NCBI GenBank assembly: GCA_027858735.1
Contig: JAQICC010000172.1
Span: 8,201 to 72,200 of the forward strand
Length of the DNA: 64,000 nucleotides
From: Salinivirgaceae bacterium
GTDB taxonomy: Bacteria > Bacteroidota > Bacteroidia > Bacteroidales > SZUA-534
Direction of reading: 5' to 3'
The position numbers and the translations under genes were made by a program. The notes below the pieces were generated by a model. The model worked only from the letters and a program-made list of their open reading frames with translations. It made no database searches and was not told the origin of the DNA. Each line of letters starts with the position of its first letter. The stretch's first letter is position 1. Of this stretch, positions 62 through 62,451 are shown in pieces.

Positions 62-242
62 GCCTCTAGAATTGGGCAAGTTCAACATCAATGGCAATGG
101 TATTAAGAGTATGGTTTTGTGAAAAAATAGCAATTCAATTGATAACCATACCAAACTAAGCCTGCGGATAGTTTATAACACTCGCAATGTTTATGTGCAA
201 ATTTATTAAACATTTCATTTTGCTTAAAGCAAAGCCCCTAAT

Positions 243-2762: not shown

Positions 2763-2780
2763 TACCCTAAAAACCCTACA
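2763..2780 (-). promoter_or_regulatory. TAGGGT direct-repeat pair (TGTAGGGTTTTTAGGGTA on minus strand) in the dagK/acs divergent intergenic region
   Basis: Plus strand taccctaaaaaccctaca. Same hexamer as the GH16 upstream repeats but spaced 9 bp. Confidence 0.3.
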
Positions 2781-5538: not shown

Positions 5539-6231
5539 ATGAAAAAAGCAGATTTAGTTGTTTTAGTAACCATTGCATTAATAGTATTTGCCTTTATTAA
5601 CTTTTCGGCAATTCTAAATAGCTACCTTACTATTAATAAGAACCATGGTATGATTACCAGTTTCATTAAGTTTGGCCTACTTGCGACTTTTGGTGAAATG
5701 TTGGGCTTGCGGATAAAAACAGGTTATTATGTTCAGAAAGGATTTGGAATTATTCCTAAAATTATTGTTTGGGGTTTTATAGGTTTAACCATAAAAATGG
5801 CCTTTGTTATATTTGCAACTGGAACACCCCAATTTCTATGCTATTTAGGTATAAAGGATGCCGCTACTACATTTAATAGTGACTTTACACTAGCAAAACT
5901 TGGTGTATCGTTTGCCATTAGCTGTGCTATGAATATTATTTATGCCCCAGTAATGATGACTTTTCATAAAATTACAGACCTACACATAGCTTCAAATAAT
6001 GGAAAGCTTCGCAGTATTATAAAACCCATCGCTTTTTCTGAAATTTTTTCTAAGATAGACTGGAATATTCAGTGGCATTTTGTATTCAAAAAAACAATCC
6101 CACTATTCTGGATACCAGCACATACCGTTACATTTTTGTTGCCTTCAGAATTTCAAGTTTTATTTGCTGCAATATTAAGCATTGTGCTAGGTCTCATTTT
6201 AGCTTTAGCCACTTTGAAAAGTCAAAATTAA
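5539..6231 (+). CDS. Integral membrane protein, unknown function (weak Mpv17/PMP22-like C-terminus)
   Basis: 230 aa, about 6 hydrophobic segments. C-terminal FWIPAHTVTFLLPSEFQVLF resembles the Mpv17/PMP22 signature region. Weak call. Confidence 0.5.
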   Translation: MKKADLVVLVTIALIVFAFINFSAILNSYLTINKNHGMITSFIKFGLLATFGEMLGLRIKTGYYVQKGFGIIPKIIVWGFIGLTIKMAFVIFATGTPQFLCYLGIKDAATTFNSDFTLAKLGVSFAISCAMNIIYAPVMMTFHKITDLHIASNNGKLRSIIKPIAFSEIFSKIDWNIQWHFVFKKTIPLFWIPAHTVTFLLPSEFQVLFAAILSIVLGLILALATLKSQN

Positions 6232-10725: not shown

Positions 10726-11382
10726 TTACTTAGCTTTTATTCCATTCTTTAACATAGCCATTGCCTGATCAATTATCTTTTCAATTTCAGTCTTAGGTAT
10801 ATTGATAATGGGCAATCCGCCTTTTACATTTTCTTCGAAATTAATGTTGTACCTAAATGCAATGTAATCATATAACCAAAGTTGGGTATGAAAAATCTGA
10901 AATGCTACCATTGTAGCATCAGTAATGGCCAGTTTCTTATTAAATTTAGGCATTTCAATTATGGCTTTTGTCTGTTCTACAACCATACCAAACATACCTT
11001 TAACAATATCTGATATTTCACTGGTATCCCGTTCATGCATAACACGAAATAAAAAGCCTCCAATTACCGGATACTCAAGATCGAATTGAATTTTATCAAG
11101 AAAATTTTGCTTAATTAATTTAAAGAAGCCCACTTTAGGGTTTTGAACCAAATCGTTCAGTTTCGATAAGCGTCGTTGGCTGGCGTCGTGTATTAAATAG
11201 GCATACAATTCCTTTTTACTGGAGAAATAACGATAAAACGAACCCTTTGCCAGTCCAAGTTTCTTAATTATTTCGGTAAGTGAAACACTGTTATATCCCT
11301 TTAATGCAAACTCCTCATAACACAACATGAGAATTTGTTCTTGCCGTTCAGGTTTTAAATTTTTGAATGTTTTTTGAGCCAT
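10726..11382 (-). CDS. TetR/AcrR family transcriptional regulator
   Basis: N-terminal HTH SLTEIIKKLGLAKGSFYRYFSSKKELY. First gene of the ABC exporter operon. Confidence 0.85.
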   Translation of the reverse strand: MAQKTFKNLKPERQEQILMLCYEEFALKGYNSVSLTEIIKKLGLAKGSFYRYFSSKKELYAYLIHDASQRRLSKLNDLVQNPKVGFFKLIKQNFLDKIQFDLEYPVIGGFLFRVMHERDTSEISDIVKGMFGMVVEQTKAIIEMPKFNKKLAITDATMVAFQIFHTQLWLYDYIAFRYNINFEENVKGGLPIINIPKTEIEKIIDQAMAMLKNGIKAK

Positions 11383-11419: not shown

Positions 11420-12010
11420 TAAATAAAAAGCGACTTGCGGGTCTCTTTTAATAAATATTTCAAGTTATTTATGTCTTAGGTAGGATATATAAACTAAAAA
11501 AACATTTAACCTGAGGTAGTATGTAGCAATGGTTCGGTAATGTTTTGTAAGTATTTAATTAGTAGCACAATAACCAGCCCAGCCTTTAAAGTTGGGGAAG
11601 TGTATATATGATTGATAAGAATGGTTTTAGTCAAAAAGGGTTTTATTTATTTTTAAAATCTACCGAAATGTTGATGTAGTAATTATAAGATAATTGAACA
11701 CTTGCTTTTTGAGCTTAATAAAAAACTTGGTTCTACTATCAATTTAGTGTGTGATTTTATAAGATGTACATATTTTGATTTTCAGATCAATAGCTCTCAG
11801 TCTTTAGTCCACAGTCAATATGCCGACTGAGAACTGCATATCCCGAAAAAATCATATCTTCAATTTGCATATTTTTTCGAGGCTCCTCGAAAATTAATTT
11901 GAATCATAGATTCAATAATTTTCGGTTCAGATTAAAAATAGAATTGAATGTGTAATGCAATCCAGAGTTATCAATCCCTAAACCCAATAATTTGGTATTA
12001 ATATGGTAAT

Positions 12011-12030
12011 TGTAGGGTTTAAATAGGGTA
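12011..12030 (+). promoter_or_regulatory. TAGGGT direct-repeat pair (11-bp phasing) upstream of GH16 gene 1
   Basis: tgTAGGGTttaaaTAGGGTa. Hexamers at 12013-12018 and 12024-12029, 38 bp upstream of the -7 box. Confidence 0.5.
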
Positions 12031-12061
12031 ACAAAAACCAACTTATCACCATGACACCGTA

Positions 12062-12069
12062 TAATTTTG
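12062..12069 (+). promoter_or_regulatory. Bacteroidota -7 promoter box (TAATTTTG)
   Basis: Matches the TAnnTTTG consensus, 31 nt upstream of ATG 12100. Confidence 0.45.
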
Positions 12070-12099
12070 TAACGAATTAATAATATAAAATTGAGCGTT

Positions 12100-13266
12100 A
12101 TGAAAAAGCAAATTTACCTTATTCTAATCTTATTCATTACAACAAACATTAGCGTTTTTGCCCAATGGGAGCTGATTTGGTCAGATGATTTCGATGAAAC
12201 CAGTCTTGATACAACTAAGTGGTTATATGCAACAGGCATAAATCCTCATAATAATGAACAACAATACTACACCGATTTAGAAGAAAATATTCGGGTTAAT
12301 GATGGATTATTGACCATTGAAGTGTTGGAAAAAGAAGTTGAAGGGAAAGACTATACCTCGGCCCGATTAAATTCAAAAGAAACCTGGTGCTATGGAAAAA
12401 TGGAAATTAAGGCTAAGTTAACCAAAGGGGTTGGTGTTTGGCCTGCCATTTGGATGTATCCTGAAAATGAGATATATGGTAATTGGCCCCGCAGTGGCGA
12501 AATTGATATTATGGAATATTGGAGTTGGGATAGTGTTGGCATTTATGGCAATGCTCATTGCGAAGAATTTAACCACATGAAACACGCCGAAAGACAAGGG
12601 CGTTTTGCCAATGCAACACCTTCTGAAGAATTTCATGTATATGGCCTTGAATGGTACAAAGACCAAATGACCTGGTTGGTTGATGGTAAAGTGTTTTTAA
12701 CTATATATAACGACAATACGATTGAATCTTATCCATTTGACCATCCGTTTAAATTTATTTTGAATGTTGCAGTTGAGAGTGTTGGCCCTGGAAATGAACA
12801 CACATGGATAAAAAGAACAATGGAGATTGATTACGTGAAAGTTTATAAAGGACCAGAAAATGGACCTGAAGCCGAGGTTCATAATATTCCTGGAACAATA
12901 AAAGCCGATGCCTTTTATAAATTTAAAGGTGCTAAAAAAGAAGCAAATACTATTCAGTATAACACCGACTTATTACTGCATAACACCGACTTTTTAAGCT
13001 ACAACACCAATTGTGAAAAACAAGGACTATATAATATAAAAATGGAAATAGCGAATACAGACACGCTTTGTTTATTAAATATTAAAAGTAAAAACCAAAA
13101 GACAACAGTTGAAGTTCCTGTAAACAAAACCAATGTTTTAACAAGCATTGATGCACAACTGTTTCTATCAAAAGGACTACAAACCATTGACATTTCAAGT
13201 TCCGGAAACCTAAAACTTTCCGATTTAAACATTGAATTTATTAGCGAAAAAGCTGTAAAAAATTAA
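12100..13266 (+). CDS. GH16 endo-beta-1,3-glucanase (laminarinase-like) with degenerate CBM6-like tail and no T9SS sorting domain
   Basis: Signal peptide then AQWELIWSDDF. Catalytic GEIDIMEY (ExDxxE), WPAIWM. The C-terminal 130 aa align with the CBM6 of the next paralog but lack its aromatic residues. ATG 12100 preferred over the tracked TTG 12091. Confidence 0.85.
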   Translation: MKKQIYLILILFITTNISVFAQWELIWSDDFDETSLDTTKWLYATGINPHNNEQQYYTDLEENIRVNDGLLTIEVLEKEVEGKDYTSARLNSKETWCYGKMEIKAKLTKGVGVWPAIWMYPENEIYGNWPRSGEIDIMEYWSWDSVGIYGNAHCEEFNHMKHAERQGRFANATPSEEFHVYGLEWYKDQMTWLVDGKVFLTIYNDNTIESYPFDHPFKFILNVAVESVGPGNEHTWIKRTMEIDYVKVYKGPENGPEAEVHNIPGTIKADAFYKFKGAKKEANTIQYNTDLLLHNTDFLSYNTNCEKQGLYNIKMEIANTDTLCLLNIKSKNQKTTVEVPVNKTNVLTSIDAQLFLSKGLQTIDISSSGNLKLSDLNIEFISEKAVKN

Positions 13267-13276
13267 CGGGTAGCGC

Positions 13277-14695
13277 ATGGATAAAAAAACTTTATTACTG
13301 GTAGTTCTATTTTTTGCCATCAGCAATGTACTTATGGCACAATGGAACCTTATATGGTCTGATGAATTTGATTATTCAGGTTTACCAGACACTGAGAAAT
13401 GGATATTTGAACATGGTCCAAATTGGTATAATGGTGAATTGCAATATTATACCAACGAACGAACCGAAAATTGCAGGGTTGAAAATGGTAATTTAATCAT
13501 TGAAGCTATTCATGAAGATTATGAAGATAAAAATTACACATCGGCTCGATTAAACTCTGTTGTAGGCTGGAAATATGGGCGTTATGAAATTCGTGCAAAA
13601 TTAACTCAAGGCAATAAACTTTGGCCCGCCATATGGATGTTCCCAGAGAGCGAGATTTATGGCACATGGCCAAAAAGTGGTGAGATTGACATTATGGAAT
13701 ATTGGAGTTGGGATCCAAACGCAATATATGGCACTATTCACACCGAGGCCTACAACCACCCTAACGGTACTGAAAAACAAGGACGGGTGGAAATAGCGGA
13801 CTTATCAAACGAATATCATGTTTTTACAGTTGAGTGGTACGAAGATCAAATTAGATGGTTTGTAGATGACAACATCTTTTATACGATCTATAACGAAGGT
13901 ACAACCCAAACCTACCCCTTCGATCATCCATTTCATTTCATATTAAACATTGCTGTAGAATCAGGCGCTCCTGGTGAAGAAGATTCATGGATTAAACCGA
14001 CAATGGAAATTGACTACGTTAGGGTTTATGAAGGCCCTCTGCAAGGACCTGAAAAAGAATACGCTCAAATGCCTGGTAAAGTTGAGGCCGAAAACTTTGT
14101 TAATGCGCAAGGTGTTAAAGTTGAAAATTGTAATGAAGGTGGTAAAAATGTCGGTTATATTGAACCGAATGACTTTATGGAGTATGATGTTAATGTGCTG
14201 GAAAGTAATGAATACACAATAGCATTTCGTGTTGCATCGGTTGCTGCAGGAAATGATTTTGATGTTTATTTAAACGATAATTTAATCTGTAATGTAGAAG
14301 TTACTAATACCAATGGTTGGCAATCATGGAAAACGGTTGAGGTGAATGCGTCACTTGAAAAAGGTAAACAACTTTTAAGGATAGTTAGTAATGGAAATTT
14401 TAATTTAAACTGGTTTGAAGTTAACGATAAAACAGTTGATATGAATAGAATAAATAATAAAACCGATTTTTTATTAGTGCCCAACCCCTCAAAAGGAACA
14501 GCTATTATTAAGATTAGTGAGGGTATGATATATAGAAAAGTTATTGTAGTTAATCAAATTGGTGAGACAATTTTAGACTCTTATGTAATGCAAAAGGACG
14601 AATTTAAACTTGAGAAACTAAACAAAGGGTTGTATGTGGTAATACTCTATGATCATTTTCAAAACCTTCAAGCAAAAAAGCTTATTGTTGAATAA
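13277..14695 (+). CDS. GH16 laminarinase-like glycoside hydrolase + CBM6 + T9SS C-terminal sorting domain
   Basis: GEIDIMEY, WPAIWM. CBM6-like MPGKVEAENF...NGWQSWKTV...NLNWFEV. C-terminal LVPNPSKGTAII...GLYVVILY...KLIVE sorting tail. Lies 10 nt after the previous gene, so probably co-transcribed. Confidence 0.9.
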   Translation: MDKKTLLLVVLFFAISNVLMAQWNLIWSDEFDYSGLPDTEKWIFEHGPNWYNGELQYYTNERTENCRVENGNLIIEAIHEDYEDKNYTSARLNSVVGWKYGRYEIRAKLTQGNKLWPAIWMFPESEIYGTWPKSGEIDIMEYWSWDPNAIYGTIHTEAYNHPNGTEKQGRVEIADLSNEYHVFTVEWYEDQIRWFVDDNIFYTIYNEGTTQTYPFDHPFHFILNIAVESGAPGEEDSWIKPTMEIDYVRVYEGPLQGPEKEYAQMPGKVEAENFVNAQGVKVENCNEGGKNVGYIEPNDFMEYDVNVLESNEYTIAFRVASVAAGNDFDVYLNDNLICNVEVTNTNGWQSWKTVEVNASLEKGKQLLRIVSNGNFNLNWFEVNDKTVDMNRINNKTDFLLVPNPSKGTAIIKISEGMIYRKVIVVNQIGETILDSYVMQKDEFKLEKLNKGLYVVILYDHFQNLQAKKLIVE

Positions 14696-14749
14696 AAAAG
14701 GTTTCATTTTTCCCCAACATAAATGCAATTATTCACCTATTTAGTAAAA

Positions 14750-14790
14750 AGTAGGGTTTAAGTAGGGTCGGCAGAAGGTACATGTAGGGC
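14750..14790 (+). promoter_or_regulatory. TAGGG(T/C) direct repeats (11- and 22-bp phasing) upstream of GH16 gene 3
   Basis: TAGGGT at 14752 and 14763, TAGGGC at 14785. -7-like TACTTTTC at 14802-14809. Confidence 0.5.
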
Positions 14791-14823
14791 TAGTACAGCA
14801 GTACTTTTCTCTTCACTCATCGT

Positions 14824-14877
14824 AAAAGTTAAAAGCAGGTGCTGAAATTCAATATCCTGTTTTTAACTTTTTTTACT
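14824..14877 (+). terminator. 16-bp AT-rich hairpin plus T-run between the candidate promoter and the start of GH16 gene 3 (terminator or attenuator)
   Basis: aaaagttaaaagcagg (14824-14839) pairs with cctgtttttaactttt (14856-14871), followed by ttttt. Confidence 0.45.
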
Positions 14878-14890
14878 TAAACTTAATAAT

Positions 14891-16420
14891 ATGAAACAAG
14901 CATTTAAGAAACACTCAGAAATTGACTTATGCTCCTCAAAATTATTTAGAGCTATAGTATTAAACAAATTGCTAAACGTAGCTAGTATAAAAAAATACAT
15001 GTTATTCTTATTTTGCACCTTAAGTACACTGATACTATCAGCTCAATGGGTTCAGGTATGGGGCGATGAGTTTAACTATAACGGAAATATTGATGCGTCA
15101 AAATGGTATTTTGAATCAGGTGCCAATTGGCCAAATGGAGAATTGCAATATTATACCGATAATAGATCAGATAACTGCAGAGTAAATGGAACGCATCTTA
15201 TAATTGAAGCCAAACAAGAATCGTACGGAGGTAAAAACTATACCAGTGCACGAATAAATTCAAGAGAAAGCTGGACCTATGGAAAATTTGAAATGAGTGC
15301 CCGGCTTACAAAAGGAAATGCCTTATGGCCCGCATTTTGGTTATTACCAGACGATATTTTAACCGGGGCACCTTGGCCTTATTGCGGTGAAATTGACATA
15401 ATGGAATATTGGAGTTGGGCTCCTTACACTATACGGGGTACCATTCATACTGATGCCTATAATCACATAGACCACACCGAAAAGCAAGGTGTTATAGACC
15501 TTAGTAATCATCCCGGTGATGATTTTCATACCTACAGTGCAATTTGGGGACCCGATCGCATTGATTGGTTTGTTGATGAGGTGTGGTTTTTTGGCTTCGA
15601 TAATGAAAATACGACTGAAACCTGGCCATTTAATAAACCATTTCATGTTTTATTAAACTTGGCAGTTGAAGGTTGGCTGCTTGAAGATTCTAACAATATA
15701 AACACCTGGACAAAACAAACCATGGAGGTTGATTATGTTAAGGTGTACCAGTGGGGAGTGCAGTCATCAACTCCTATTGGACAAACCGTGCATATTAAAG
15801 GAAGTAATGGAAAATATTTAAGTTCAGAGAATGGTACATCGGGTATTATTTGTAATAGAACTGCACCGGGCGGATGGGAAACTTTTGAAATAGTGAATGC
15901 TGGCAATAACCTTATTGCTTTAAAAGGGAACAATAATAAGTATGTTAGTTCAGAAAATGGACTTAGCGATATGTATTGCAATAGAAGCTCATTTGGCGAT
16001 TGGGAAAAATTTGAATGGATTGATCATGGCAATGGCGATTTTTCACTTAAAGCTACTAACAACCAATATGTTACTTCGAATAATGGCGCTTCGGCATTGA
16101 TATGTGATCGCACGACAATTCAGGGTTGGGAAAAATTCACCTATGAAAGTGCTAGCTCAAAATCAGCAGACATTAGTAATATTATCAAAAAAGAAAACAT
16201 TAGCCTTTATCCGAACCCGGCAAGCGATTACGTAATAATTGATGGTTTGAAGGATATGAACTTCATTAATTTGTATGATAGAGCCGGAAAATTAATTCTT
16301 CAAAAAAGCATAAGGAATACAAAGCAAACCATTGACTTAAAAAATATAAACTCTGGTATTTATTTCTTTAAAATATCAGGTTTCAATGGTAATAATGTGT
16401 ATAAACTAATCATTCAATAA
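14891..16420 (+). CDS. GH16 laminarinase-like hydrolase + three-fold beta-trefoil (fascin-like) domain + T9SS sorting domain
   Basis: GEIDIMEY, WPAFWL. Three repeats of G.KYVSSENG...CNR...GWEKF. C-terminal LYPNPASDYVII...GIYFFKI...YKLIIQ. The start is uncertain; an alternative ATG at 14999 sits closer to the signal peptide. Confidence 0.85.
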   Translation: MKQAFKKHSEIDLCSSKLFRAIVLNKLLNVASIKKYMLFLFCTLSTLILSAQWVQVWGDEFNYNGNIDASKWYFESGANWPNGELQYYTDNRSDNCRVNGTHLIIEAKQESYGGKNYTSARINSRESWTYGKFEMSARLTKGNALWPAFWLLPDDILTGAPWPYCGEIDIMEYWSWAPYTIRGTIHTDAYNHIDHTEKQGVIDLSNHPGDDFHTYSAIWGPDRIDWFVDEVWFFGFDNENTTETWPFNKPFHVLLNLAVEGWLLEDSNNINTWTKQTMEVDYVKVYQWGVQSSTPIGQTVHIKGSNGKYLSSENGTSGIICNRTAPGGWETFEIVNAGNNLIALKGNNNKYVSSENGLSDMYCNRSSFGDWEKFEWIDHGNGDFSLKATNNQYVTSNNGASALICDRTTIQGWEKFTYESASSKSADISNIIKKENISLYPNPASDYVIIDGLKDMNFINLYDRAGKLILQKSIRNTKQTIDLKNINSGIYFFKISGFNGNNVYKLIIQ

Positions 16421-16511
16421 AACATTAAACACCTATTTGTTAATGTAGAATATTAGCAAATTACAAAATAGAAAAATAAAATAGGGTTAGTTATTTAGTT
16501 TACTCCAGACA

Positions 16512-16547
16512 ATCACCCCTACTTAAACAAGTAGGGGTGATGTTTTT
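16512..16547 (+). terminator. Rho-independent terminator after GH16 gene 3
   Basis: atcacccctac-ttaaacaa-gtaggggtgat hairpin followed by tgttttt. Confidence 0.7.
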
Positions 16548-16655
16548 AGATACTGACAGTTTAACTTCAACAAGCCTCGCAAAACCTTTATAACAACCTT
16601 TACCTCTGCATCTTATCAATATATTAAAGAATACCAAATCTCGGTATCAAATACT

Positions 16656-16686
16656 TGTAGGGTTTTGGGAGATGATTTGTAGGGGG
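16656..16686 (+). promoter_or_regulatory. TAGGG(T/G) direct repeats (22-bp phasing) upstream of GH16 gene 4
   Basis: TAGGGT at 16658-16663, TAGGGG at 16680-16685. -7 box TAGTTTTG at 16717-16724 (37 bp). Confidence 0.5.
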
Positions 16687-16780
16687 CCAATTTTTTAGCT
16701 AACAGCCTTATAATTTTAGTTTTGTTTGAGACTATTTCAACATAAAATAATAGCTCCAGTGTTAACTAAAAATTGTAATT

Positions 16781-19700
16781 ATGAAAAAACTAACTTTAAA
16801 TTTATTTCTTGTACTAACTGCTTTAAGCAGCTTTTCACAATGGAATCTTGTATGGTCCGACGAATTTAATTACACAGGTGAACCCGATGTAAATAAATGG
16901 TCGTATGACCCAGGCCCAAACCCCTATAACAATGAAATGCAATATTATTCTACAAACCTTGAAAACACCAGGGTTGAAAATGGCAATCTTGTTATGGAAG
17001 TTAAGCAAGAAGCTATGGGTGAAAAGAATTATACTTCATCAAGAATAAATACCAAAACAAAAGCCAGTTGGACATACGGTAAAATGGAAGCTCGCATGAA
17101 GCTAACTGAAGGCGAGAAGCTTTGGCCTGCATTTTGGATGATGCCTGTTACCAATACCTACGGCACCTGGCCAGCAAGTGGCGAAATCGATATTATGGAA
17201 TATTGGAGTTGGGATGATGCTGCTACTTTTGGTAATTATCATTGTGCAAATTATTTCGCTAAATACGGTTTGCGAAAAGCAATTACGAACCCAAGCACCG
17301 ATTGGCATTTATTCGGTGTAGAATGGAGCGAGAGTAAAATTATTTTCTCAGTTGATAATGAGGCATATGCCACATACAATAATCCGGGTACAGGGAGCAA
17401 CGATTGGCCCTTTAATAAACCATTTTACATTATTTTTAACATTGCCGTTGAAGAGGGTGCAACAGGTAAAGATAGTACATGGACAAAAACAACGGTAGAA
17501 GTTGATTATGTGCGTGTTTATACTGCAGGTCCCGTAGTACCCGTAATTGGCATTGGACTAAATACTAACGAAACTGAAGTAACTAAATATGGCACAACAC
17601 AATTAGTTGCCAGCATAGAACCCGCAAATGCATCAAATAAAGATATTATCTGGACATCAAGCAACGAAGCCATCGCAAAAGTTAATACATCAGGTGTTGT
17701 AACTGGCATAGCAAACGGAACAGCTACCATAACAGCTACCACAAGTGATGGCAATAAAACTGCTAGTTGCACGGTTACGGTTGCAGGAACCGCACCTTGC
17801 AGTTTGCTCACCATTTTCAATGTTCCATTGAGTCAGCCACTACCAGTTATTGATAAAAGTTTTACAAATATTCATGTTTTAGGAAGCGATGGGCCAGATT
17901 TAAGTAACCTAACTTCATTTCAAGTTGCATGGGATGCTAATAACAGTGCACTTTACAATTTTGCCTTTAATACCAGCAACGGTAATCCTGGATGGTGGTT
18001 CGATTTAAATGCTAAAACCATGCAAACGTTTGACTCTCCAAACCCTTCATGCACAATAAGCGGCTCGGGCATTAATGGTTTAGATGGCGAATACTATGTA
18101 AACGTAGATAACAACAATTTTGTGATGGTTGAAAAGAACAGTTTATATGCCATTTATCTAAGTAATTCGAGTATTGCTCCGGATGGCTGTTCACAATCAA
18201 CCATTGACACCGAAGCACCAACTACACCAGCAAATATTACTTCAATACCCTCTTCAAATTCAGTTCAATTAAACTGGAATGCCAGTAGCGACAATATTGG
18301 AGTAGCTGCTTATAACATCTATGAAAGCTCGGTATTGATAGCCACTATTAATTCTACAAACTACACTGTTAACAGCTTGTCTGCGTCAACACAATATAGC
18401 TTTAGTATTCAGGCAATTGATGCAGCAGGTAATTTATCACAAAAAGCTAATATAACAGTTACTACTAATGAGGAAGTAGATCTTATTAAACCAACAACAC
18501 CATCTAATTTAACTGCTGAAGTTAGCACAAACTCAATAATTTTAAATTGGTCAGCTTCAAGCGATAATGTTGGTGTTAGCGGATACAATATTTATAATGG
18601 TTCAGCACTCATAACCAGTACGCTACAAACAAATACAAACGTTCATAATCTTGATCCTGGAACCATGTATACTTTTTATATAGAAGCCTTTGATGAAGCT
18701 GGCAACACTTCGCTAAAAGCAAGCAATACTTTTACCACAAAAACAAACACAGTGAATTTTCCTTTAAAAATTGAAGCTGAAGATTATTCTTCAATGTTAG
18801 GTATTAAAACTCAGGCTTGTTCTGAAGGTACTGAAAACGTTGGCTGGACAAATGCTGGCGATTATTTAAAATATACGCTTACAATACCCACAGAAGGTGA
18901 TTATTTGCTAAGCTATAGAGTTGCATCTCTTAATGGCGGTGGCAAATTAAATTTGAAAGCCGATTACAGCAATGATATATTGGCTGAACTAACTATTCCT
19001 AATACTGGAGGTTGGCAAGTTTGGACAACACAAAGTCATACCGCTCATCTCGCGGCAGGCACCTATAGCATAACTCTTGAAGTTATTATTGGCGGTTTTA
19101 ACCTTAACTATTTTACCATTGAACCCGAAAATACAACTCCTGTAAACCCTTTATTTATTGAAGCTGAAGACTATGTAGATTACTTTGGAATTGAAACTGA
19201 AAATTGTTCTGAGGGCACGCTGAACATAGGTTGGGTTGATATGGGAGATTGGATGGCTTACAATATAGACATACCTGAAGAAGGTTTATATAATATTGAT
19301 TTAAGAGTAGCCAGTAGTGTTAACGGTGGTAAAATAAGCATTGAAAACTTTGGAGGCAGCCCCATTTACAATACAATTGATGTACCCAATACTAATGGCT
19401 GGCAAAACTGGACAACCATTACAACCCAAGTTGATTTAAATGCAGGTAATCAAACCATTGCACTCACGGCTGCTCAGGGTGGTTGGAATTTAAACTGGCT
19501 ACAGTTAAGCAAAAACACGGCGAAAAATGCAACACTTTCCATAGAAAACGATCGAGCTAAAATTAAGTGTTATCCAACCATTGCCAGTTCCACTATAACC
19601 ATTGATAATATTAACAATTATGATGCGCTTAAACTCCATCTATTCTCGTCAATCGGCACGCTAATTAAAACAGCGTATTTAGAAAATGCATATACTAAAA

Positions 19701-19792
19701 CTTTAAACATTGAGCATTTGGAAACAGGTGTGTACTTCATAAAACTGGAAAGTGATTTGCCATTACAAACTTTCAAATTTATTAAACAATAA
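16781..19792 (+). CDS. Multidomain GH16 laminarinase-like hydrolase: GH16 + Big_2 + unknown domain + 2 FN3 + 2 CBM6 + T9SS sorting domain
   Basis: GEIDIMEY. Big_2 segment ...IIWTSSNEAIAKVNTSGVVTGIANGTATITA. Two FN3 repeats (PT(T)P.N(I/L)T...SSDN(I/V)GV(A/S)(A/G)YNIY). Two CBM6-like repeats (IEAEDY...GWQ.WTT...NLN(Y/W)). C-terminal GVYFIKL...FKFIKQ. Confidence 0.9.
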   Translation: MKKLTLNLFLVLTALSSFSQWNLVWSDEFNYTGEPDVNKWSYDPGPNPYNNEMQYYSTNLENTRVENGNLVMEVKQEAMGEKNYTSSRINTKTKASWTYGKMEARMKLTEGEKLWPAFWMMPVTNTYGTWPASGEIDIMEYWSWDDAATFGNYHCANYFAKYGLRKAITNPSTDWHLFGVEWSESKIIFSVDNEAYATYNNPGTGSNDWPFNKPFYIIFNIAVEEGATGKDSTWTKTTVEVDYVRVYTAGPVVPVIGIGLNTNETEVTKYGTTQLVASIEPANASNKDIIWTSSNEAIAKVNTSGVVTGIANGTATITATTSDGNKTASCTVTVAGTAPCSLLTIFNVPLSQPLPVIDKSFTNIHVLGSDGPDLSNLTSFQVAWDANNSALYNFAFNTSNGNPGWWFDLNAKTMQTFDSPNPSCTISGSGINGLDGEYYVNVDNNNFVMVEKNSLYAIYLSNSSIAPDGCSQSTIDTEAPTTPANITSIPSSNSVQLNWNASSDNIGVAAYNIYESSVLIATINSTNYTVNSLSASTQYSFSIQAIDAAGNLSQKANITVTTNEEVDLIKPTTPSNLTAEVSTNSIILNWSASSDNVGVSGYNIYNGSALITSTLQTNTNVHNLDPGTMYTFYIEAFDEAGNTSLKASNTFTTKTNTVNFPLKIEAEDYSSMLGIKTQACSEGTENVGWTNAGDYLKYTLTIPTEGDYLLSYRVASLNGGGKLNLKADYSNDILAELTIPNTGGWQVWTTQSHTAHLAAGTYSITLEVIIGGFNLNYFTIEPENTTPVNPLFIEAEDYVDYFGIETENCSEGTLNIGWVDMGDWMAYNIDIPEEGLYNIDLRVASSVNGGKISIENFGGSPIYNTIDVPNTNGWQNWTTITTQVDLNAGNQTIALTAAQGGWNLNWLQLSKNTAKNATLSIENDRAKIKCYPTIASSTITIDNINNYDALKLHLFSSIGTLIKTAYLENAYTKTLNIEHLETGVYFIKLESDLPLQTFKFIKQ

Positions 19793-21056: not shown

Positions 21057-22799
21057 GTTACAGCTCAGCTACAAAAAAAAGCATTTTAGCATGGCTGATA
21101 GCAATTAGCCACCAGCGTCAAAAATTGTATGAGTTTCTTGAAGATGATTATTAAGGACTGGATAGGAATGCTTTTTTTTGCATAGCTAAATTTATCATAA
21201 ATTTTAGATATTCAAATACGTCAGCATCTCTTTTAATCATTGTATCAATGACTGATCTAATCACTGCAAAAATTTCAGCACCCCTCTCGGAACGAAAAGC
21301 TCCAGAAACTTTCTGTTTGACTTTTATGTTCCGGATCGCCCTTTCAGAGCCATTATTATCAAACGGGACATGAAAATAAAATAAGAAAGTAAAAACAGAA
21401 TTGCGATGTTTCTTCAATCTATTCTTAAAAGCAGATAGTTTGGGAATATTCTCAGGAATTTGCATTTCTATTAGTTTTTCAAAATCATCAAGAATATTAT
21501 CTCTGGCTTGATTCGATTTTGAATAGTGTTCAGGGCTCATGGATTTTTTTAACTTGATAGCTTTCTGTAATAATGCTTTCATTTGCACTGTCCATTTATC
21601 ATTGTAGAGTTCAATGAAGCTATTAAGTTCTCTTATGAGATGAGCCAGGCACAGTTGATGAAGAAACGCAGGAGTTTTAAGTTGTGTACTCAAAGAATCT
21701 GATACAAGCGTGGCTTGGGGAAATCCATTGGAAAATTCATTTTCAATTGTCACAAAGCCCCGGCTTGGAGCTATGGTTATGTATGTTTCAGTTAAGGTTT
21801 GCCAAACCCAAGCCCAGTACTTCTCCATTCGAACTTTTGCACCCGATTCATCACTTCCTACCGTCGATGCTTTTTCAATATCAGATTTTATTCCTTGATA
21901 AATAGGAAGTAAATAATCGGCCGTCCTGTCTAACATATTAAAAATAGTACCCTCACTCATTGATACATTGGTAATACTTCGTATTAGTTCTGGTATACGT
22001 CCATACGGGACATACTGCCGAGTGCTTAAATAAGCTACTAAAGTTGTTAGGTTACTACCGTATTGAACCGGAGCGGTTACTCCTGCTGGAAATTGGCCTT
22101 TGGACATATGGCCACATGGGCATTCTCTCTGAAAAATACGATGTTCAATGATGTTTGCCTGAATAGGTGGAATGTCTATCACTTGTCGCATGGCCTTTAA
22201 TGTCAGATTATCTGCATTATGTACACGCCCGCAATCAGGGCACTCTTCATTTGGAAAATGATTGATCACTTCATCTGGGTTCTTTGATTGTTGGAGCGTT
22301 TCGCCTTTGTGTCCATGCTGACCTCCTGATAGGCGATTACTCTTCTCTCGAAGACTTTTATTTTTGACCTGATACAAATCGCGAGATGGAGGAAAGGAAC
22401 TGTTACCACTATTCTTAGGAGACTTTAATATTCGCACTTCCTCCTTTAGGTCATTAACCTCTTTGATTAATTGATCTATCGTAGAATTAAGGTTGAAGAT
22501 AATATCTATCAACTCATCCTTGCTTAATTTTTTAAGTATCTCCCGATCTGCCATTGTCTTTTGTTTGTGACAAAGGTGCGGTATTATTATCTCCTATAGA
22601 AAACTAAAGCCATGCTATTTACCAACAGATGGAGCATAGGTTATTAACAAATTAGTCCAACATTTTTGTGTTTGAAATTTCATACCCCCTGACAGTCGAA
22701 TAGAATACCTGGAGGTCTTTTTATTTGCTAATATCTCAAGGAAATCAGGCTTTATGAAATCTTGAAAATATGTGCCCAAAATAGAAGTTGAGTAGTAAC
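21057..22799 (-). mobile_element. IS66-family insertion sequence (single-ORF, ISBst12-like organisation), 1743 bp
   Basis: 8-bp direct duplication CCTAACAA at 21049-21056 and 22800-22807. Imperfect terminal inverted repeats GTTACAGCTCAGCTAC / GTTACTACTCAACTTC. Contains one transposase ORF. Confidence 0.85.
21151..22554 (-). CDS. IS66 family transposase
   Basis: 467 aa. N-terminal coiled coil, zinc-finger CPDCGRVH, DDE region with GSDESGAKV, CLAHLIRE and NNGSERAIRNIKVKQKVSG motifs typical of IS66 TnpC. Confidence 0.9.
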   Translation of the reverse strand: MADREILKKLSKDELIDIIFNLNSTIDQLIKEVNDLKEEVRILKSPKNSGNSSFPPSRDLYQVKNKSLREKSNRLSGGQHGHKGETLQQSKNPDEVINHFPNEECPDCGRVHNADNLTLKAMRQVIDIPPIQANIIEHRIFQRECPCGHMSKGQFPAGVTAPVQYGSNLTTLVAYLSTRQYVPYGRIPELIRSITNVSMSEGTIFNMLDRTADYLLPIYQGIKSDIEKASTVGSDESGAKVRMEKYWAWVWQTLTETYITIAPSRGFVTIENEFSNGFPQATLVSDSLSTQLKTPAFLHQLCLAHLIRELNSFIELYNDKWTVQMKALLQKAIKLKKSMSPEHYSKSNQARDNILDDFEKLIEMQIPENIPKLSAFKNRLKKHRNSVFTFLFYFHVPFDNNGSERAIRNIKVKQKVSGAFRSERGAEIFAVIRSVIDTMIKRDADVFEYLKFMINLAMQKKAFLSSP

Positions 22800-26374: not shown

Positions 26375-29300
26375 TCAATATCTAATAATAAAGGCACCCA
26401 AATCGGTTTCTGATTTTAAATCAAGCTTTTTACGTAGGCGCCATCGGGCTTTTTCAGTTCCTTTAAGCGAAATACTTAACAATTGGGCAATATCTTTCGA
26501 ACTCATGTTCATTCTTAAATAAGCACAAAATTGTAAATCTTTTGCATTAAGGTCTTCAAATTGCTCTTTAAGTCGGTTTAAAAAGTTATCATGAATTTCA
26601 TTAAAAAGCTTATCAAACTGGTTCCAGTCTTGCTGATTTTTAAGATTCATATCAATTTCGCGTTTAATGGTTGCAATTTTCTTTTGCAGGCCAGTATCCG
26701 ACTCATTCTCTAGCTCCGACAATTTCCCATTTAGTTGCGAAATAAGTTCGTTGGCACTTGTGGCTTTCATGGCTAACGAAGTAAGTTCAGCATTTTTACG
26801 ATCTACATCGTTTTGTTTTTGTTTAAGCTCTTTGGTTAGCAGCTCATTCTTCATTTTTATAATTTCCTTTTCTTGTTCAAGCCTATCCGCTTCAAGTTCC
26901 TTTTGCTTTAAAATAAGTCTATGCTTCTCTTTTTCTTCTGCTTCATTTTTTTTCTTTTCTGTAATAATTTGAAGTGTTTTTTGCTTAACCAATGCTTTTA
27001 GTTTGCTATTAAACAAACGTATATTTCGTAAACGATACAAAAACAACAAATAAACTATAAGTGAAACTAAAATTATAGACAATATAATAAACCACCAAGT
27101 TTGCCAAAAAGGTGGCTTTACAACTATATCTAAGGCATCTTGGGTAAATTCATCTTCATTATTATGATAAGCTCTGACTTTTAAAGTATAACCACCTGGT
27201 TTTAAATTTGTGAATGTAACTTTTGTTTGATTTTCGATTGCATGCCAGTTATCCTCAAAACCTTCAAGTATATATTGATAATTCACATTATTATCAAGAC
27301 CAAAACTTGGAGAATTAAACCCGAAACCAATCATTTTGTGCCTATACTCCAGTGTAATATTGTCTGTTTCAGCTAACGATTTTGTTAATAAATCACCTTT
27401 TCTTGGTGTTTGCTTATTGTTATATAAATAAAAGTCATGAATTACAACTGGTTGAATAAAACTATGCTTTTGTATTTTACTAGGTAAAAAACTAATAAAC
27501 CCACTATTTCCTCCAAAATATAAACGGTTTGATTTTGTTTTATAACAAGCCCTCTCGTTAAATTCATCCATGTAAATTCCATCAGCCTTGGTAAAAAGAT
27601 TATGTGTATTGGTTTCTTTATCAAATTTTACTAAGCCCTCATTACTTCCAAGCCAGAACATACCAAATTCATCATTTATAATTGACTTAATGTATAGGGG
27701 CAAATGGTAAAGCTGACTGTATTGTTCAAATTTAATGAGGCTATCTTCTTCCACTAATTTATCAAGGCCTCCGGTTGAACCAATCCACAGTTCTTTTTGA
27801 TAATCTTCAAAAATGGTATATATATTATTTGAACTTAAGGTGTTTGGATTGCTTTTCTCTGCAAAAAAACTTTTAACATTTTCGCCATCAAACATATACA
27901 ATCCATAATAACTGGCAATCCAAATTCTGTTTTTTGAGTCAACCAGTACTTGCGAGCACCAAGGAATATCAAATAGCTCAGATGGAAATTTCCCTTGATT
28001 TTCTTTATTATAAACAATATCGTTTAGCTTATTATAAATATTTATTCCAAGCTTACTATGAGTAAGTATAAACAGCAAACTATCATTATTGCATAGCGAT
28101 TTTAAGTTATTTGAATTTAGTCGCTTGTTTTCTATGTGCAGCTTTGCCTCAATACGGTTTTCTAATGTAGAATATCTTATTAATCCATCATTCCAAGTTG
28201 CCATCCAAACCGTTTCAGAATTTTCAGGTTTTATGTCTAATATAAAATTGCCAAAAGTTGTGTTAAAAGACCGCACAGTCTTAAAACCGCCAGTGTACTC
28301 ATCAAATTCATCCACACCTCCACCATCTGTACCTATTAAAACGTGTCCATCATTATTCTCACTGAAAGAAGTTACATTATTATTTTTAAGGGTATTAATT
28401 TCATTTTGAATTCTACTATATTGCGAGAATTGATGGGTTTGATAATTAAAATAACTCATGCCTCCTCCGTGAGAAGCTAGCCAAATATTTTCGTTAGCGT
28501 CTTCATAAACATCAGTTATACTATTTGAAGGCAAACTAAATGAATCGTATTCATTTGCTTTATAAGTTGAAAAACTATTTTCTGACGGATTATGCAAAAT
28601 AAGTCCTCCGTTTATAGTGCCTATCCAAATGTTATTTCTTGAATCTTGTATTATTTTAGTAATAATATTACTTGATAAAACAGAGCCACTATCGTTTGAA
28701 GCCATATAATGATCAAGTATGGTAAAACTAATTGGATCAATAACATAAACACCCTTATTCCAGGTGCCAACCCACAATTTACCTTCGCGTGTAAGGCAAA
28801 ATGTTTTTATTTGTTGCGGTAAATTCGCAATCTCAATCTTATTAAATTCTTTTTTATTAAGGTCATATTTTAATATACCATTACCATCGCTTCCTGCTAA
28901 AACTCCTATATGCTTATCAGCGACAAAACAATTCACTATTTCAGTAGTTGTCACATTTATTTTAACTGCTATCAAGGCATTTTTATCGGCATCAAAAACA
29001 AATACCCCTTTATTTGAACCAACCCATAGTGTTTGATTATAATCTGTATATAAAGCATGAATGCTATATTCTAAGGCACCTTGTTTAATTGCAACAAAGT
29101 CTTCTTTAAAATGGTTATATTTTAATACGCCAAACTTATTTGTGCCAATCCACATAATACTATCGGCACTAGCCATGCAGTTAATAATAGCCATATTATA
29201 AATATTGCTATCATCGGTAATTTTCAAAAAACTATGTGCATTATATTTATTTAAACCCAGTTCCGTACCTATCCATAAATATCCATATTTATCCTGCACC

Positions 29301-29431
29301 AGGGTTTCGATAGTGTTACTTGATAATCCGTTTTGAACAGAATAAGATTGAAATTTTATGTTATTTTGTTGTGAATATAGAAAGTTGATAAGGAATATTA
29401 AGAAAGTAAGTAATACTAATTTGCACCTCAT
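26375..29431 (-). CDS. Transmembrane one-component sensor-regulator: periplasmic beta-propeller repeats + Y_Y_Y domain, TM helix, coiled coil, LuxR/GerE-type HTH
   Basis: 1018 aa. Signal/TM at the N-terminus, repeated ..LWIGT..G(L/V)..Y propeller motifs, YQYILEGFEDNWH...GGYTLKVRA (Y_Y_Y), TM WWFIILSIILVSLIVYLLFLY, about 170 aa of heptad-rich K/E sequence, C-terminal LNAKDLQFCAYLRMNMSSKDIAQLLSISLKGTEKARWRLRKKL. Confidence 0.85.
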   Translation of the reverse strand: MRCKLVLLTFLIFLINFLYSQQNNIKFQSYSVQNGLSSNTIETLVQDKYGYLWIGTELGLNKYNAHSFLKITDDSNIYNMAIINCMASADSIMWIGTNKFGVLKYNHFKEDFVAIKQGALEYSIHALYTDYNQTLWVGSNKGVFVFDADKNALIAVKINVTTTEIVNCFVADKHIGVLAGSDGNGILKYDLNKKEFNKIEIANLPQQIKTFCLTREGKLWVGTWNKGVYVIDPISFTILDHYMASNDSGSVLSSNIITKIIQDSRNNIWIGTINGGLILHNPSENSFSTYKANEYDSFSLPSNSITDVYEDANENIWLASHGGGMSYFNYQTHQFSQYSRIQNEINTLKNNNVTSFSENNDGHVLIGTDGGGVDEFDEYTGGFKTVRSFNTTFGNFILDIKPENSETVWMATWNDGLIRYSTLENRIEAKLHIENKRLNSNNLKSLCNNDSLLFILTHSKLGINIYNKLNDIVYNKENQGKFPSELFDIPWCSQVLVDSKNRIWIASYYGLYMFDGENVKSFFAEKSNPNTLSSNNIYTIFEDYQKELWIGSTGGLDKLVEEDSLIKFEQYSQLYHLPLYIKSIINDEFGMFWLGSNEGLVKFDKETNTHNLFTKADGIYMDEFNERACYKTKSNRLYFGGNSGFISFLPSKIQKHSFIQPVVIHDFYLYNNKQTPRKGDLLTKSLAETDNITLEYRHKMIGFGFNSPSFGLDNNVNYQYILEGFEDNWHAIENQTKVTFTNLKPGGYTLKVRAYHNNEDEFTQDALDIVVKPPFWQTWWFIILSIILVSLIVYLLFLYRLRNIRLFNSKLKALVKQKTLQIITEKKKNEAEEKEKHRLILKQKELEADRLEQEKEIIKMKNELLTKELKQKQNDVDRKNAELTSLAMKATSANELISQLNGKLSELENESDTGLQKKIATIKREIDMNLKNQQDWNQFDKLFNEIHDNFLNRLKEQFEDLNAKDLQFCAYLRMNMSSKDIAQLLSISLKGTEKARWRLRKKLDLKSETDLGAFIIRY

Positions 29432-30656: not shown

Positions 30657-30666
30657 ATATTATTTA

Positions 30667-31887: not shown

Positions 31888-31930
31888 ATCAATTAAATTT
31901 TTAACTTATTACTTTCAATTTAAAAATACC

Positions 31931-34252: not shown

Positions 34253-34324
34253 CTTCTTTTATTTAAGTTATTATTTTGGTATCAGAGCCATAAACCTCCT
34301 ACTAGCTTTGGTGGTAAAAAAGCT

Positions 34325-62440: not shown

Positions 62441-62451
62441 CAACGAAATTC

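Follow-up and report, generated by a model that had tools for sequence, protein, structure and literature searches.

Phased GTAGGGT repeats ahead of GH16 genes as a candidate operator of a BguR-type regulator in a Salinivirgaceae bacterium

Repeat units at the GH16 promoters

In a cluster of GH16 genes from a Salinivirgaceae bacterium, the same short word stands repeatedly ahead of three transcription units, which raises the question of whether these repeats form a regulatory site and which protein would bind it. We analyzed the window, i.e., the whole stretch of 64,000 nucleotides (64 kb) taken from contig JAQICC010000172.1. All seven copies listed in a preliminary description are present, with TAGGGT at 12013, 12024, 14752, 14763, and 16658, TAGGGC at 14785, and TAGGGG at 16680, and the copies at the three promoters are indeed direct repeats 11 or 22 bp apart. 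TAGGGT alone is not enriched (26 copies found in the 64-kb window versus 22.1 expected), and what stands out is the pairing and location of the word rather than its frequency. The pattern TAGGG-N6-TAGGG was found twice in the 64 kb versus 0.04 times expected, and none of 100 shuffles reached two or more. Co-oriented TAGGG pairs with a gap of 2 to 30 nt gave five matches (1.58 expected) at four intergenic places, three of which are GH16 promoters. The fourth pair (2765-2778, minus strand, spacing of 9), ahead of an unrelated lipid-kinase gene, is outside the geometry of the GH16 promoters. There are exactly four copies of the extended core GTAGGGTTT in the window, each of them intergenic and oriented toward the downstream gene. 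Allowing up to three mismatches, GTAGGGT-N4-GTAGGGT gave six matches versus 1.83 expected and also revealed ATATGGT at 12001 as a degenerate third unit. The recurrence of TAGGGT ahead of the three GH16 transcription units is thus genuine.

Ahead of GH16 gene 1 (12100-13266, plus strand, as are all features of this cluster described here), the candidate operator at 12001..12029 consists of three 11-bp-phased units, namely, the degenerate ATATGGT at 12001, GTAGGGT at 12012, and ATAGGGT with its TAGGGT at 12024. The two TAGGG words start 49 and 38 nt ahead of a −7 box at 12062..12069 (TAATTTTG), which matches the Bacteroidota-type consensus TAnnTTTG perfectly and lies 38 nt ahead of the gene 1 ATG. 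Gene 2 (13277-14695; GH16, CBM6, and a T9SS C-terminal domain [T9SS-CTD]) starts 10 nt behind the end of gene 1 at 13266, as had been described, and the two genes (12100..14695) presumably form one operon. Gene 4 (16781..19792; GH16, Big_2, fn3, two CBM6/35 domains, and T9SS-CTD) is a separate transcription unit, because a strong intrinsic terminator (16512-16541; 13-bp stem followed by a T-run) lies between genes 3 and 4. The arms of this terminator happen to include GTAGGGG. The candidate operator of gene 4 at 16657..16685 comprises GTAGGGT at 16657, the degenerate GGAGATG at 16668, and GTAGGGG at 16679; its TAGGG words start 59 and 37 nt ahead of another perfect −7 box (16717..16724, TAGTTTTG), itself 64 nt ahead of the gene 4 ATG. 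Unit spacing is therefore 22 bp for gene 4, against 11 bp for genes 1 and 3 and for all foreign loci described below.

Gene 3 (14891..16420; GH16, DUF7910, and T9SS-CTD) is the poorer fit. Its candidate operator at 14751..14790 contains GTAGGGT at 14751 and 14762, the degenerate AGAAGGT at 14773, and GTAGGGC at 14784, and its candidate −7 box at 14802..14809 (TACTTTTC), which is uncertain, has one mismatch to TAnnTTTG and is not among the perfect matches. The distances of 38, 39, and 37 nt given in the preliminary description are arithmetically right, and the boxes at 12062 and 16717 are perfect, but the one at 14802 is not; moreover, the proximal-pair geometry claimed for gene 3, with the box 39 nt after the TAGGGT at 14763, overlooked the third copy at 14785, just 17 nt ahead of the box. 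The called ATG at 14891 gives gene 3 a 36-residue N-terminal extension that is missing in its paralogues and in the GH16 protein of a foreign locus (L093), and from this comparison the start codon was probably miscalled, the real one lying near 14987-14999.

A GH16 domain is present in all four genes, and genes 2 to 4 also encode a T9SS C-terminal domain. The four paralogues are pairwise only 44 to 50% identical at the protein level, and the units and the −7 box are the sole sequence that their promoters have in common (alignment A1), which indicates that the motif was maintained rather than inherited from a recent duplication.

A candidate regulator in the window

As a possible binder, the helix-turn-helix (HTH) domain of the protein encoded at 26375..29431 (minus strand; 1,018 aa) had been proposed. 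This protein begins with a stretch read by eye as a signal peptide (MRCKLVLLTFLIFLINFLYSQQ), followed by Reg_prop β-propellers (E = 6.4e-39, seven stretches, as in a periplasmic tandem β-propeller), a Y_Y_Y domain (residues 710-770; E = 6.5e-14), one hydrophobic membrane segment, a long helical linker, and, at the C terminus, a GerE/LuxR-type HTH. The membrane segment (WWFIILSIILVSLIVYLLFLY) directly follows Y_Y_Y and was read by eye from the BLASTP alignment as a single transmembrane (TM) helix. Taken alone, the regulator matches HTH models weakly (GerE, E = 0.02; MctR HTH region, 3.8e-4); a profile of eight homologous C termini matches LuxR/NarL-type HTH structures (EsrB at 4e-5, EvgA, VraR, and NarL), seven of the eight match Pfam GerE, and the C-terminal domains of the window regulator and of the foreign-locus regulators can be aligned (alignment A2). 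A full-length search is dominated by HTCS-like proteins of 26 to 31% identity. HTCS identity was ruled out for the window protein itself, in which domain searches found no HisKA, HATPase_c, or receiver domain, even at E ≤ 1, and no AraC output domain.

The predicted domain architecture assigns the protein to the BguR type of one-component systems. BguR (β-glucan utilization regulator) of Formosa agariphila is described in a 2026 preprint (bioRxiv 10.64898/2026.01.10.698779) as an activator of the laminarin polysaccharide utilization locus (PUL), established genetically and needed both for growth on laminarin and for a 70- to 110-fold induction of the PUL. The activator reading proposed earlier for the repeats thereby gains support. 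Between the regulator gene and the nearest site there are 9.7 kb, including an IS66 transposase gene (21151-22554), and the regulator gene is on the opposite strand; the four GH16 genes belong to the same cluster at distances of 6.6 to 17 kb and do not adjoin it. Neither SusC nor SusD was found in the 64-kb window.

Conservation of the arrays and proposed mode of action

A blind motif scan with an 18-mer against 185,579 genomes found a locus (L072) that encodes a 923-aa protein homologous to the window regulator (BLASTP, 2e-21); the array there begins 5 nt past the stop codon of this gene and lies upstream of a T9SS-CTD gene and a SusC-like gene. Altogether, five unrelated loci (L072, L093, L098, L099, and L100) contain 11-bp-phased GTAGGGT units whose proximal member is 37 nt ahead of a −7 box, and each of these arrays directly adjoins a homologue of the 26375..29431 protein. 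Both the reading of the GH16 repeats as an activator site and the choice of candidate binder are strengthened by this recurrence. The regulators of L098, L099, and L100 are marine and 52 to 38% identical to that of L072, and these three loci share the gene order regulator, array, T9SS-CTD gene, SusC, SusD. One of them continues into GH30, which marks it as a laminarin-type PUL, and all three are counted as marine laminarin-type PULs. In all of these loci the units start 80, 69, 48, and 37 nt ahead of the box, and the gene 1 units align with the proximal pair (alignment A1). Among full-length homologues, the one closest to the window regulator (P0122, 34% identity) is encoded in L093, on a contig of differing G+C content, directly after a GH16+T9SS gene. 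The promoter of this GH16+T9SS gene carries TAGGGGG, GTAGGGT, and GTCGGGT, and 37 nt behind the last of these units stands a perfect box (TAGATTTG).

Loci of the marine homologues (L072 and L098 to L101) have GTAGGGT units identical to those of the window. More distant homologues speak against the operator reading: no GTAGGGT units were found in L094 and L095 by pattern search with up to three mismatches and by model R1 (see below), or in L105 by R1 and in two intergenic stretches that were read; L094 and L104 have variant units only. The motif is specific and is not a general feature of GH16 or T9SS cargo promoters: it is absent at the T9SS cargo promoter at 22788 in the window and at others in L093, no R1 match was found at the GH16 loci L002 and L005 of unrelated organisms, and L002 has no co-oriented TAGGG pair.

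Model R1 was built from the five foreign promoters only, without window sequence. Its best match in 128 kb of window sequence is the gene 4 promoter (E = 9e-5) and its second-best the gene 1 promoter (E = 0.05), while the gene 3 promoter ranks 14th (E = 1.2), with the first pair alone aligned. The frequency of perfect TAnnTTTG boxes in the window is 7.9e-4 per position, yet four of eight promoters have one at 37 to 38 nt and the other four have a one-mismatch box at 37 to 39 nt, a placement whose probability by chance is below 1e-6 (our own binomial arithmetic). That the repeats arose by chance, or are a neutral leftover of the tandem duplication behind the GH16 paralogues, is hardly credible even though the hexamer alone is at background frequency and the genes are tandem paralogues. 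The pair statistics contradict chance, the paralogues and their promoters have diverged as described above, and the element recurs in unrelated genomes with an unchanged distance to the −7 box, so that a model trained across those loci detects the window sites. This cross-genome conservation effectively refutes both versions of the explanation.

A σA promoter of Bacteroidota has a TAnnTTTG −7 box and a −33 TTTG/TTG about 19 to 20 nt upstream of it. Inspection by eye found no TTG at −33 in the promoters of genes 1 and 4, L072, L093, L099, and L100, L098 being the only compared promoter that has one, which is consistent with activator dependence. The missing −33 TTG and the fixed distance of the −7 box could also mean that the units are core promoter, whether as an UP-like element or as a −35-like element for an alternative or ECF σ factor. 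We regard this as very unlikely, given that the roughly 30 nt between the proximal unit and the −7 box are too many for a σ −35/−10 pair, that the units come in arrays of two to five copies reaching 80 nt upstream, and that BguR-like genes or their GH16 targets are the only neighbors of such units, which occur at none of the other window promoters. Still further from the evidence is an origin as iterons or mobile-element ends. In a Prevotella locus (L076), inverted arrays of the same 11-bp unit surround a replication module, with five and four tandem GTAGGGTTTAN units adjoining a BT4734-N/VapE-like primase-helicase gene, and the window does contain the IS66 transposase gene. Such an origin is scarcely conceivable for the window sites, however, as these have just two or three units and no inverted arrays, lie at promoter distance from three separate genes with no replication or recombination gene nearby, and are 4.4 kb or more from IS66.

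We consider it likely, judging from sequence comparison, that a membrane-spanning one-component activator of the BguR type uses the phased (G)TAGGG(T) units as its operator, with the 26375..29431 protein as the likeliest binder. The periplasmic β-propeller/Y_Y_Y sensor would bind oligosaccharides, presumably of laminarin-type β-glucan, and the signal would pass through the single membrane helix and the helical linker without a phosphorelay. The C-terminal GerE-type HTH domains would then sit on head-to-tail half-sites one helical turn (11 bp) apart, the proximal half-site starting 37 to 38 nt before the TAnnTTTG −7 box and just upstream of the expected −33 element. From there the regulator may contact RNA polymerase and recruit it to promoters lacking the −33 TTG, turning on three transcription units (gene 1-gene 2, gene 3, and gene 4) and with them four mostly T9SS-secreted GH16 β-1,3-glucanases. 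Activator function and laminarin dependence are taken here from the preprint, for BguR as the founder of the family.

Dimers of GerE-type HTH domains as a rule bind inverted repeats, and binding to direct repeats would call for a putative head-to-tail arrangement. OmpR/PhoB-type boxes have head-to-tail half-sites every 10 to 11 bp, a layout that the arrays share. A different transcription factor, such as an OmpR/PhoB-type winged-helix response regulator, might be the binder, with the BguR-like genes coregulated or indirectly involved; the 6+5 direct-repeat layout is textbook PhoB/PhoP-type geometry (e.g., the 11-nt direct repeat units of Streptomyces PhoP [PMC2275107]), and the BguR-like gene of the window is distant from its sites. 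We hold this to be improbable, since the array lies immediately beside a BguR-like gene in five independent loci, none of which has an OmpR-type gene next to the array, and since L094 and L104, whose regulators are more distant homologues, have variant units, a covariation to be expected where the neighboring regulator is the binder. In the source genome, the true binder could be a paralogue encoded elsewhere.

Beyond the BguR-type operator itself, a wider reading has in our judgment about an even chance of being right, namely, that there is a phylum-wide operator grammar of BguR-type regulators and that the regulon of the source organism has escaped from the PUL context. In this grammar, 11-bp units sharing a GTAG core may stand in tandem as pairs, the proximal member lying 37 nt before the −7 box and possibly replacing the absent −33 element. 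The unit may vary by lineage, from GTAGGGT in the window and marine Flavobacteriia to TGTCGTAGTAT in a Lewinellaceae MAG and GCGTAG/CGTAAC in L094. One regulator may then govern a dispersed regulon of T9SS-secreted GH16 enzymes without SusCD, which, if true, contradicts the statement of the preprint that bguR homologues are found exclusively inside β-glucan PULs.

Comparison with known systems

The system in the window is well supported as a further example of the just-described BguR type rather than an unknown code. The preprint (bioRxiv 10.64898/2026.01.10.698779) describes, in the intergenic stretch from bguR homologues to the first structural gene, a conserved motif as a putative binding site (logo in its Fig. 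3C), the DNA site being predicted only, so the word "undescribed" used for the repeats at first no longer holds fully. From its position and context, the GTAGGGT motif would be that BguR motif. The regulators share a signal peptide, a tandem β-propeller, Y_Y_Y, one TM helix, a helical linker, and a GerE HTH without phosphorelay; both are associated with β-1,3-glucan-degrading genes and with a motif conserved in the promoter ahead of the first structural gene. The window protein differs in its longer linker, in a gene that does not adjoin its presumed targets, and in its sequence, being 23% identical to the L072 regulator over a 324-residue C-terminal stretch (best BLASTP alignment), although its C-terminal 110 aa are 31 to 38% identical to those of four marine regulators. 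Its presumed targets are three separate promoters of mostly T9SS-secreted GH16 genes, without SusC/SusD in the 64 kb, and these promoters have proximal units only (−37/−48/−59), unlike the marine loci with their distal pair (−69/−80). The presumed control of dispersed T9SS GH16 genes without SusCD is what is new, and the novelty is modest; it suggests that free laminarinases secreted by the T9SS, outside PULs of the SusCD type, are likewise driven by regulators of the BguR type. Little is understood of how environmental Bacteroidota regulate glycan degradation, and an explicit, testable operator is now offered (unit sequence, 11-bp phasing, and 37- to 38-nt offset from the −7 box). Its conservation extends from marine Flavobacteriia to a distant lineage of 34% G+C, and its site rules would allow regulons for β-glucan turnover to be predicted straight from metagenomes.

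Bacteroides HTCS proteins have a homologous periplasmic sensor (Reg_prop propellers and Y_Y_Y) and likewise control glycan-degrading genes, whereas the window protein lacks HisKA, HATPase, receiver, and AraC output and ends in a GerE-type HTH. SusR of Bacteroides, which the preprint names as the sole comparable architecture, is by description also a one-component activator that is membrane associated and serves glycan utilization, but it differs in sensor and substrate (α-glucan). The window regulator shares its logic, by analogy and not homology, with ToxR/CadC, transmembrane activators whose cytoplasmic DNA-binding domain acts on direct repeats upstream of the promoter without phosphorylation; in these, the winged-helix (OmpR-type) domain is N terminal and the periplasmic sensor C terminal, while the window topology is reversed and its HTH is GerE type. 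MalT has a LuxR-type HTH that is able to use direct repeats. The boxes of PhoB/PhoP and MalT resemble the arrays as short head-to-tail half-sites with one-turn spacing, at or just upstream of −35 in activator-dependent promoters, and differ from them in the proteins and half-site sequences and, for the Pho boxes, also in the fold of the protein.

Phased repeats at the GH16 promoters

Every copy of the repeat listed in the preliminary description was found again in the window sequence, with TAGGGT at 12013, 12024, 14752, 14763 and 16658, TAGGGC at 14785, and TAGGGG at 16680. The copies lie upstream of genes 1 (12100-13266), 3 (14891-16420) and 4 (16781-19792), all on the plus strand, and the unit consensus in the window is (G/A)TAGGG(T/C/G). 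Although the hexamer alone occurs at background frequency (26 observed versus 22 expected in the window), the arrangement of the units does not: TAGGG-N6-TAGGG was found twice versus 0.04 expected, and co-oriented TAGGG pairs 2 to 30 nt apart occupy just four places in the window (1.58 expected). Each of the four lies between genes, and three of them are GH16 promoters; within the window, the proposed link of the repeat pairs to these promoters, above background, held. Allowing up to three mismatches in a pattern of two units gave 6 matches versus 1.83 expected and added a degenerate third unit at 12001.

The fourth co-oriented pair, at 2764-2779 (minus; GTAGGGTTTTTAGGGT), has its units 9 rather than 11 apart and stands where a YegS-like lipid kinase gene (1708-2625, minus) and an acetate-CoA-ligase-like gene (2844, plus) diverge. 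It lacks a -7 box at +37 and is not matched by R1, a promoter model built from foreign loci, and it is probably unrelated or due to chance. The spacer between genes 3 and 4, which holds a terminator with a 13-bp stem, carries more TAGGG copies (16482-16541), one at 16482 (plus) and one in each arm of the hairpin (GTAGGGG; 16517 minus, 16532 plus). These may be coincidental or additional low-affinity sites.

The repeats precede four GH16 enzymes, with T9SS sorting domains in genes 2 to 4; gene 2 (13277-14695) follows directly behind gene 1, with 10 nt between them, as had been noted. A TAnnTTTG-type -7 box at a fixed distance of about 38 bp had been claimed for every GH16 unit. This stood for genes 1 and 4, with perfect boxes at 12062 and 16717, 38 and 37 nt past the proximal unit, but not fully for gene 3, where the “box” (TACTTTTC) has one mismatch. 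A further unit lies 17 nt before TACTTTTC, and the called start of gene 3 (14891) places 36 residues in front of the signal peptide that are found neither in the paralogues nor in the GH16 protein of the foreign GH16/T9SS locus L093; with both, the protein aligns from about residue 38 on. Judged from these alignments, the true start is probably ATA 14987 or ATG 14999. Together, the box mismatch, the unit at 17 nt and the start extension make gene 3 the least certain promoter.

The GH16 paralogues share 44 to 50% protein identity, and their aligned promoters have nothing in common except the units and the -7 box, so the repeats are not a duplication relic; chance or duplication as the origin of the pattern is highly improbable. 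An Rfam search matched no RNA family in the GH16 leaders; elsewhere in the window, a TPP riboswitch was identified at 62447-62542 (plus; RF00059, 56.7 bits). A σ70 promoter scan is uninformative for Bacteroidota.

Related arrays in other genomes

The best non-self protein matches to gene 1 share just 44 to 55% identity, and the protein collection searched held no close GH16 orthologues. Two contigs with GH16 loci from unrelated organisms, L002 (40.6% G+C) and L005, contained no copy of the motif. Scanning metagenomes with the 18-mer GTAGGGTTTAARTAGGGT, in a collection without the window's contig, yielded 32 matches, all of them due to chance or to degenerate telomere-like TTTAGGG arrays. Exact 18-mer matches within such arrays, presumably of eukaryotic origin, occur in contigs L007, L012, L016, L023, L026, L028 and L034, and they call for caution in motif scans using this 18-mer.

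When each species was represented by one genome, the scan gave 55 matches, none of them from the window's source genome. The decisive one is L072, a single-cell genome of an uncultured marine Bacteroidetes, in which the array TTGTAGGGTTTTTGTAGGGTT begins 5 nt past the stop codon of a gene for a 923-amino-acid protein homologous to the candidate regulator of the window (26375..29431, minus; BLASTP 2e-21, strongest in the C-terminal helix-turn-helix [HTH]); a T9SS-CTD gene and a gene of SusC type come after the array. Three loci hold homologues of the L072 regulator at 52, 38 and 39% identity and have a common gene order, namely regulator, a 170- to 210-bp intergenic region, T9SS-CTD protein, SusC and SusD, and each intergenic region holds an array of 11-bp-phased units. 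One of these loci runs on into GH30, which marks it as a laminarin-type polysaccharide utilization locus (PUL). A homology search with the window regulator itself found one homologue of the same architecture (34% identity), at L093, directly after a GH16+T9SS gene whose promoter reads TAGGGGG, GTAGGGT, GTCGGGT, then TAGATTTG 37 nt on. The L093 contig has 37 to 40% G+C and thus probably comes from another organism.

The pair also occurs in genome-scan matches L045, L089, L046, L083 and L038, with no regulator gene seen in the examined stretches; the sequences of L045 and L089 lack a -7 box at +37, and all five pairs may be due to chance. Three further matches (L048, L069 and L092) look coding. 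In L045 (Mucilaginibacter sp. L3T2-6), TTGTAGGGTTTTTGTAGGGTT stands after a terminator at 5900-5920, with a SusC/SusD-like pair on one side and, on the other, a GH18+DUF7910 gene that shares DUF7910 with window gene 3; no regulator is visible within the 8 kb examined. The same 11-bp unit also occurs in Prevotella sp. ne3005 (L076), where two inverted arrays of GTAGGGTTTAN, each of 4 to 5 tandem copies (2450-2545 and 2754-2810), flank a 240-bp core beside a BT4734-N/VapE-like primase-helicase gene and a Dcm/EcoRII restriction-modification pair. These resemble iterons from the replication origin of a mobile element; that the window repeats are likewise iterons is barely conceivable.

To compare the geometry, we counted from the T of TAGGG to the T of the TAnnTTTG box, using alignments and sequence reading. 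Units begin 80, 69, 48 and 37 nt before the box in marine loci L098, L099 and L100, and 79, 68, 48 and 37 nt before it in L072; each marine array thus has one tandem pair and a second one at an offset of 32 bp, which is about three helical turns. The proximal positions are kept in L093 (61, 48 and 37 nt) and in the window, with units at 60 (weak), 49 and 38 nt for gene 1, at 59, 48 (degenerate) and 37 nt for gene 4, and at 50 and 39 nt plus the extra unit at 17 for gene 3. Perfect boxes, with a frequency of 7.9e-4 per position, stand at 37 to 38 nt in four of the eight promoters and one-mismatch boxes at 37 to 39 nt in the other four, a placement whose chance probability is far below 1e-6 (binomial arithmetic by hand). 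By eye, most of these promoters lack a TTG at the expected -33 position, as expected for activator-dependent promoters. A core-promoter element or one read by an extracytoplasmic function (ECF) or other alternative σ factor would also recur at fixed positions, but the 30-nt gap from unit to -7 box led us to reject the σ factor reading, and either form is very unlikely.

The R1 model, built by sequence from the proximal 63 nt of five foreign promoters with the window excluded, was applied to the entire window without filters. It ranked the gene 4 promoter first (E = 9e-5) and the gene 1 promoter second (E = 0.05), with the gene 3 pair at rank 14 (E = 1.2). Its third-best match (E = 0.06), at 197-242 (minus), consists of one TTAGGGG unit and, behind it, a perfect TAAATTTG box, just downstream of gene 243-1613 and directed at a gene past the left window edge. 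R1 had no match in L002 and L005, nor beside the more distant regulator homologues L094 and L095. Thus, the repeats themselves are confirmed, and their interpretation as same-face direct repeats forming a putative activator site for the GH16 genes is supported by the geometry, the foreign loci and R1.

The candidate regulator and its proposed action

The window regulator (1,018 amino acids) has a signal peptide, seven Reg_prop stretches, a Y_Y_Y domain, one hydrophobic segment and then a long helical linker; no kinase or receiver domain was found in it. Its C-terminal domain could be aligned with the corresponding domain of every regulator in the comparison. The profile of this domain matches solved LuxR/NarL-type HTH domains (EsrB at 4e-5, EvgA, VraR and NarL), and Pfam GerE was matched in seven of the eight members of the set.

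We propose that β-glucan oligosaccharides would be bound by the periplasmic sensor and that the membrane helix and the linker would pass the signal on, with no phosphorelay involved. The GerE-type domains would then sit on head-to-tail half-sites on one helix face, just upstream of the -33 position, and bring RNA polymerase to all three GH16 promoters. The cis-element, its geometry, its association with the regulator family and the regulator's architecture come from our analysis and the activator role from a preprint (bioRxiv 10.64898/2026.01.10.698779); the remainder we infer. Weak points are the imperfect fit of gene 3 and the location of the regulator gene, 9.7 kb from the nearest repeat site with an IS66 element between. 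In addition, GerE domains usually prefer inverted repeats, which counts against the proposed direct-repeat binding. Binding by a different factor, e.g., an OmpR-type regulator, is unlikely. The TetR gene divergent from gene 1 (10726-11382) was rejected as the regulator; it heads an ABC-transporter operon, no evidence ties it to the repeats, and TetR proteins have palindromic operators.

The regulator gene is set off from the GH16 cluster by the IS66-family transposase gene (21151-22554, minus), at which a related JGI contig (L001) breaks; insertion of this element may have split the regulator off from its targets. Adjoining the regulator gene is a GlcNAc-type utilization cluster (29799-35548, minus) with a ROK kinase, a NagP-like MFS transporter, a large NagB-like deaminase and a NagC/Mlc-like ROK regulator; the GTAGGGT array is absent from all of these genes.

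Among more distant regulator homologues, L095, by pattern search and R1, and L105, by R1 and the reading of two intergenic stretches, showed no GTAGGGT units. In a Lewinellaceae MAG (GCA_020636095.1; L104, 5335-5389), a homologue with 25% identity precedes SusC/SusD, and the intergenic units GTAGGAT, GTAGTAT, (gap), GTAGTAT and GTAGGGC, spaced 11, 21 and 11 and mostly preceded by TGTC, have the layout of the marine arrays with a variant half-site. In L094 (12338-12426), a homologue with 30% identity precedes a GDSL-lipase/CBM/T9SS gene, with two pairs of units offset by 32 bp (GCGTAG in two copies, spacing 10; CGTAAC; CGTACT) and a perfect TAATTTTG box 35 nt past the last unit, which suggests lineage-specific half-sites within one grammar. 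In L095 (1600-1690), a homologue with 27% identity and a divergent recognition helix lies in a GH10/GH43/GH11 xylanase cluster, with CTATGT-type direct repeats upstream of the GH10 gene; therefore, the wider family may not be restricted to β-glucans.

Comparison with the BguR system

A literature search for the motif string found nothing, and the BguR preprint was the only relevant work found. BguR of Formosa agariphila has exactly the architecture of the window regulator; deleting bguR abolished growth on laminarin and the 70- to 110-fold induction of the laminarin PUL, and homologues are reported to occur widely across Bacteroidota and, within a set of 53 marine genomes, exclusively with β-glucan PULs (10.64898/2026.01.10.698779). 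For the stretch that separates bguR homologues from the first structural gene, the preprint reports an XSTREME motif (E = 2.4e-85), given as a figure and not spelled out in the text or supplement; its primers reach just 33 nt past the bguR stop codon. Since our arrays lie in this very stretch in four marine loci, they are, judged by position, very probably the same element. The code had been called undescribed, which no longer applies, since this kind of regulator and a motif at a like position are already reported. The window system is a new member of the BguR kind, unusual for its proposed regulon of T9SS GH16 genes, which is dispersed and lacks SusCD, and it gives explicit operator rules.
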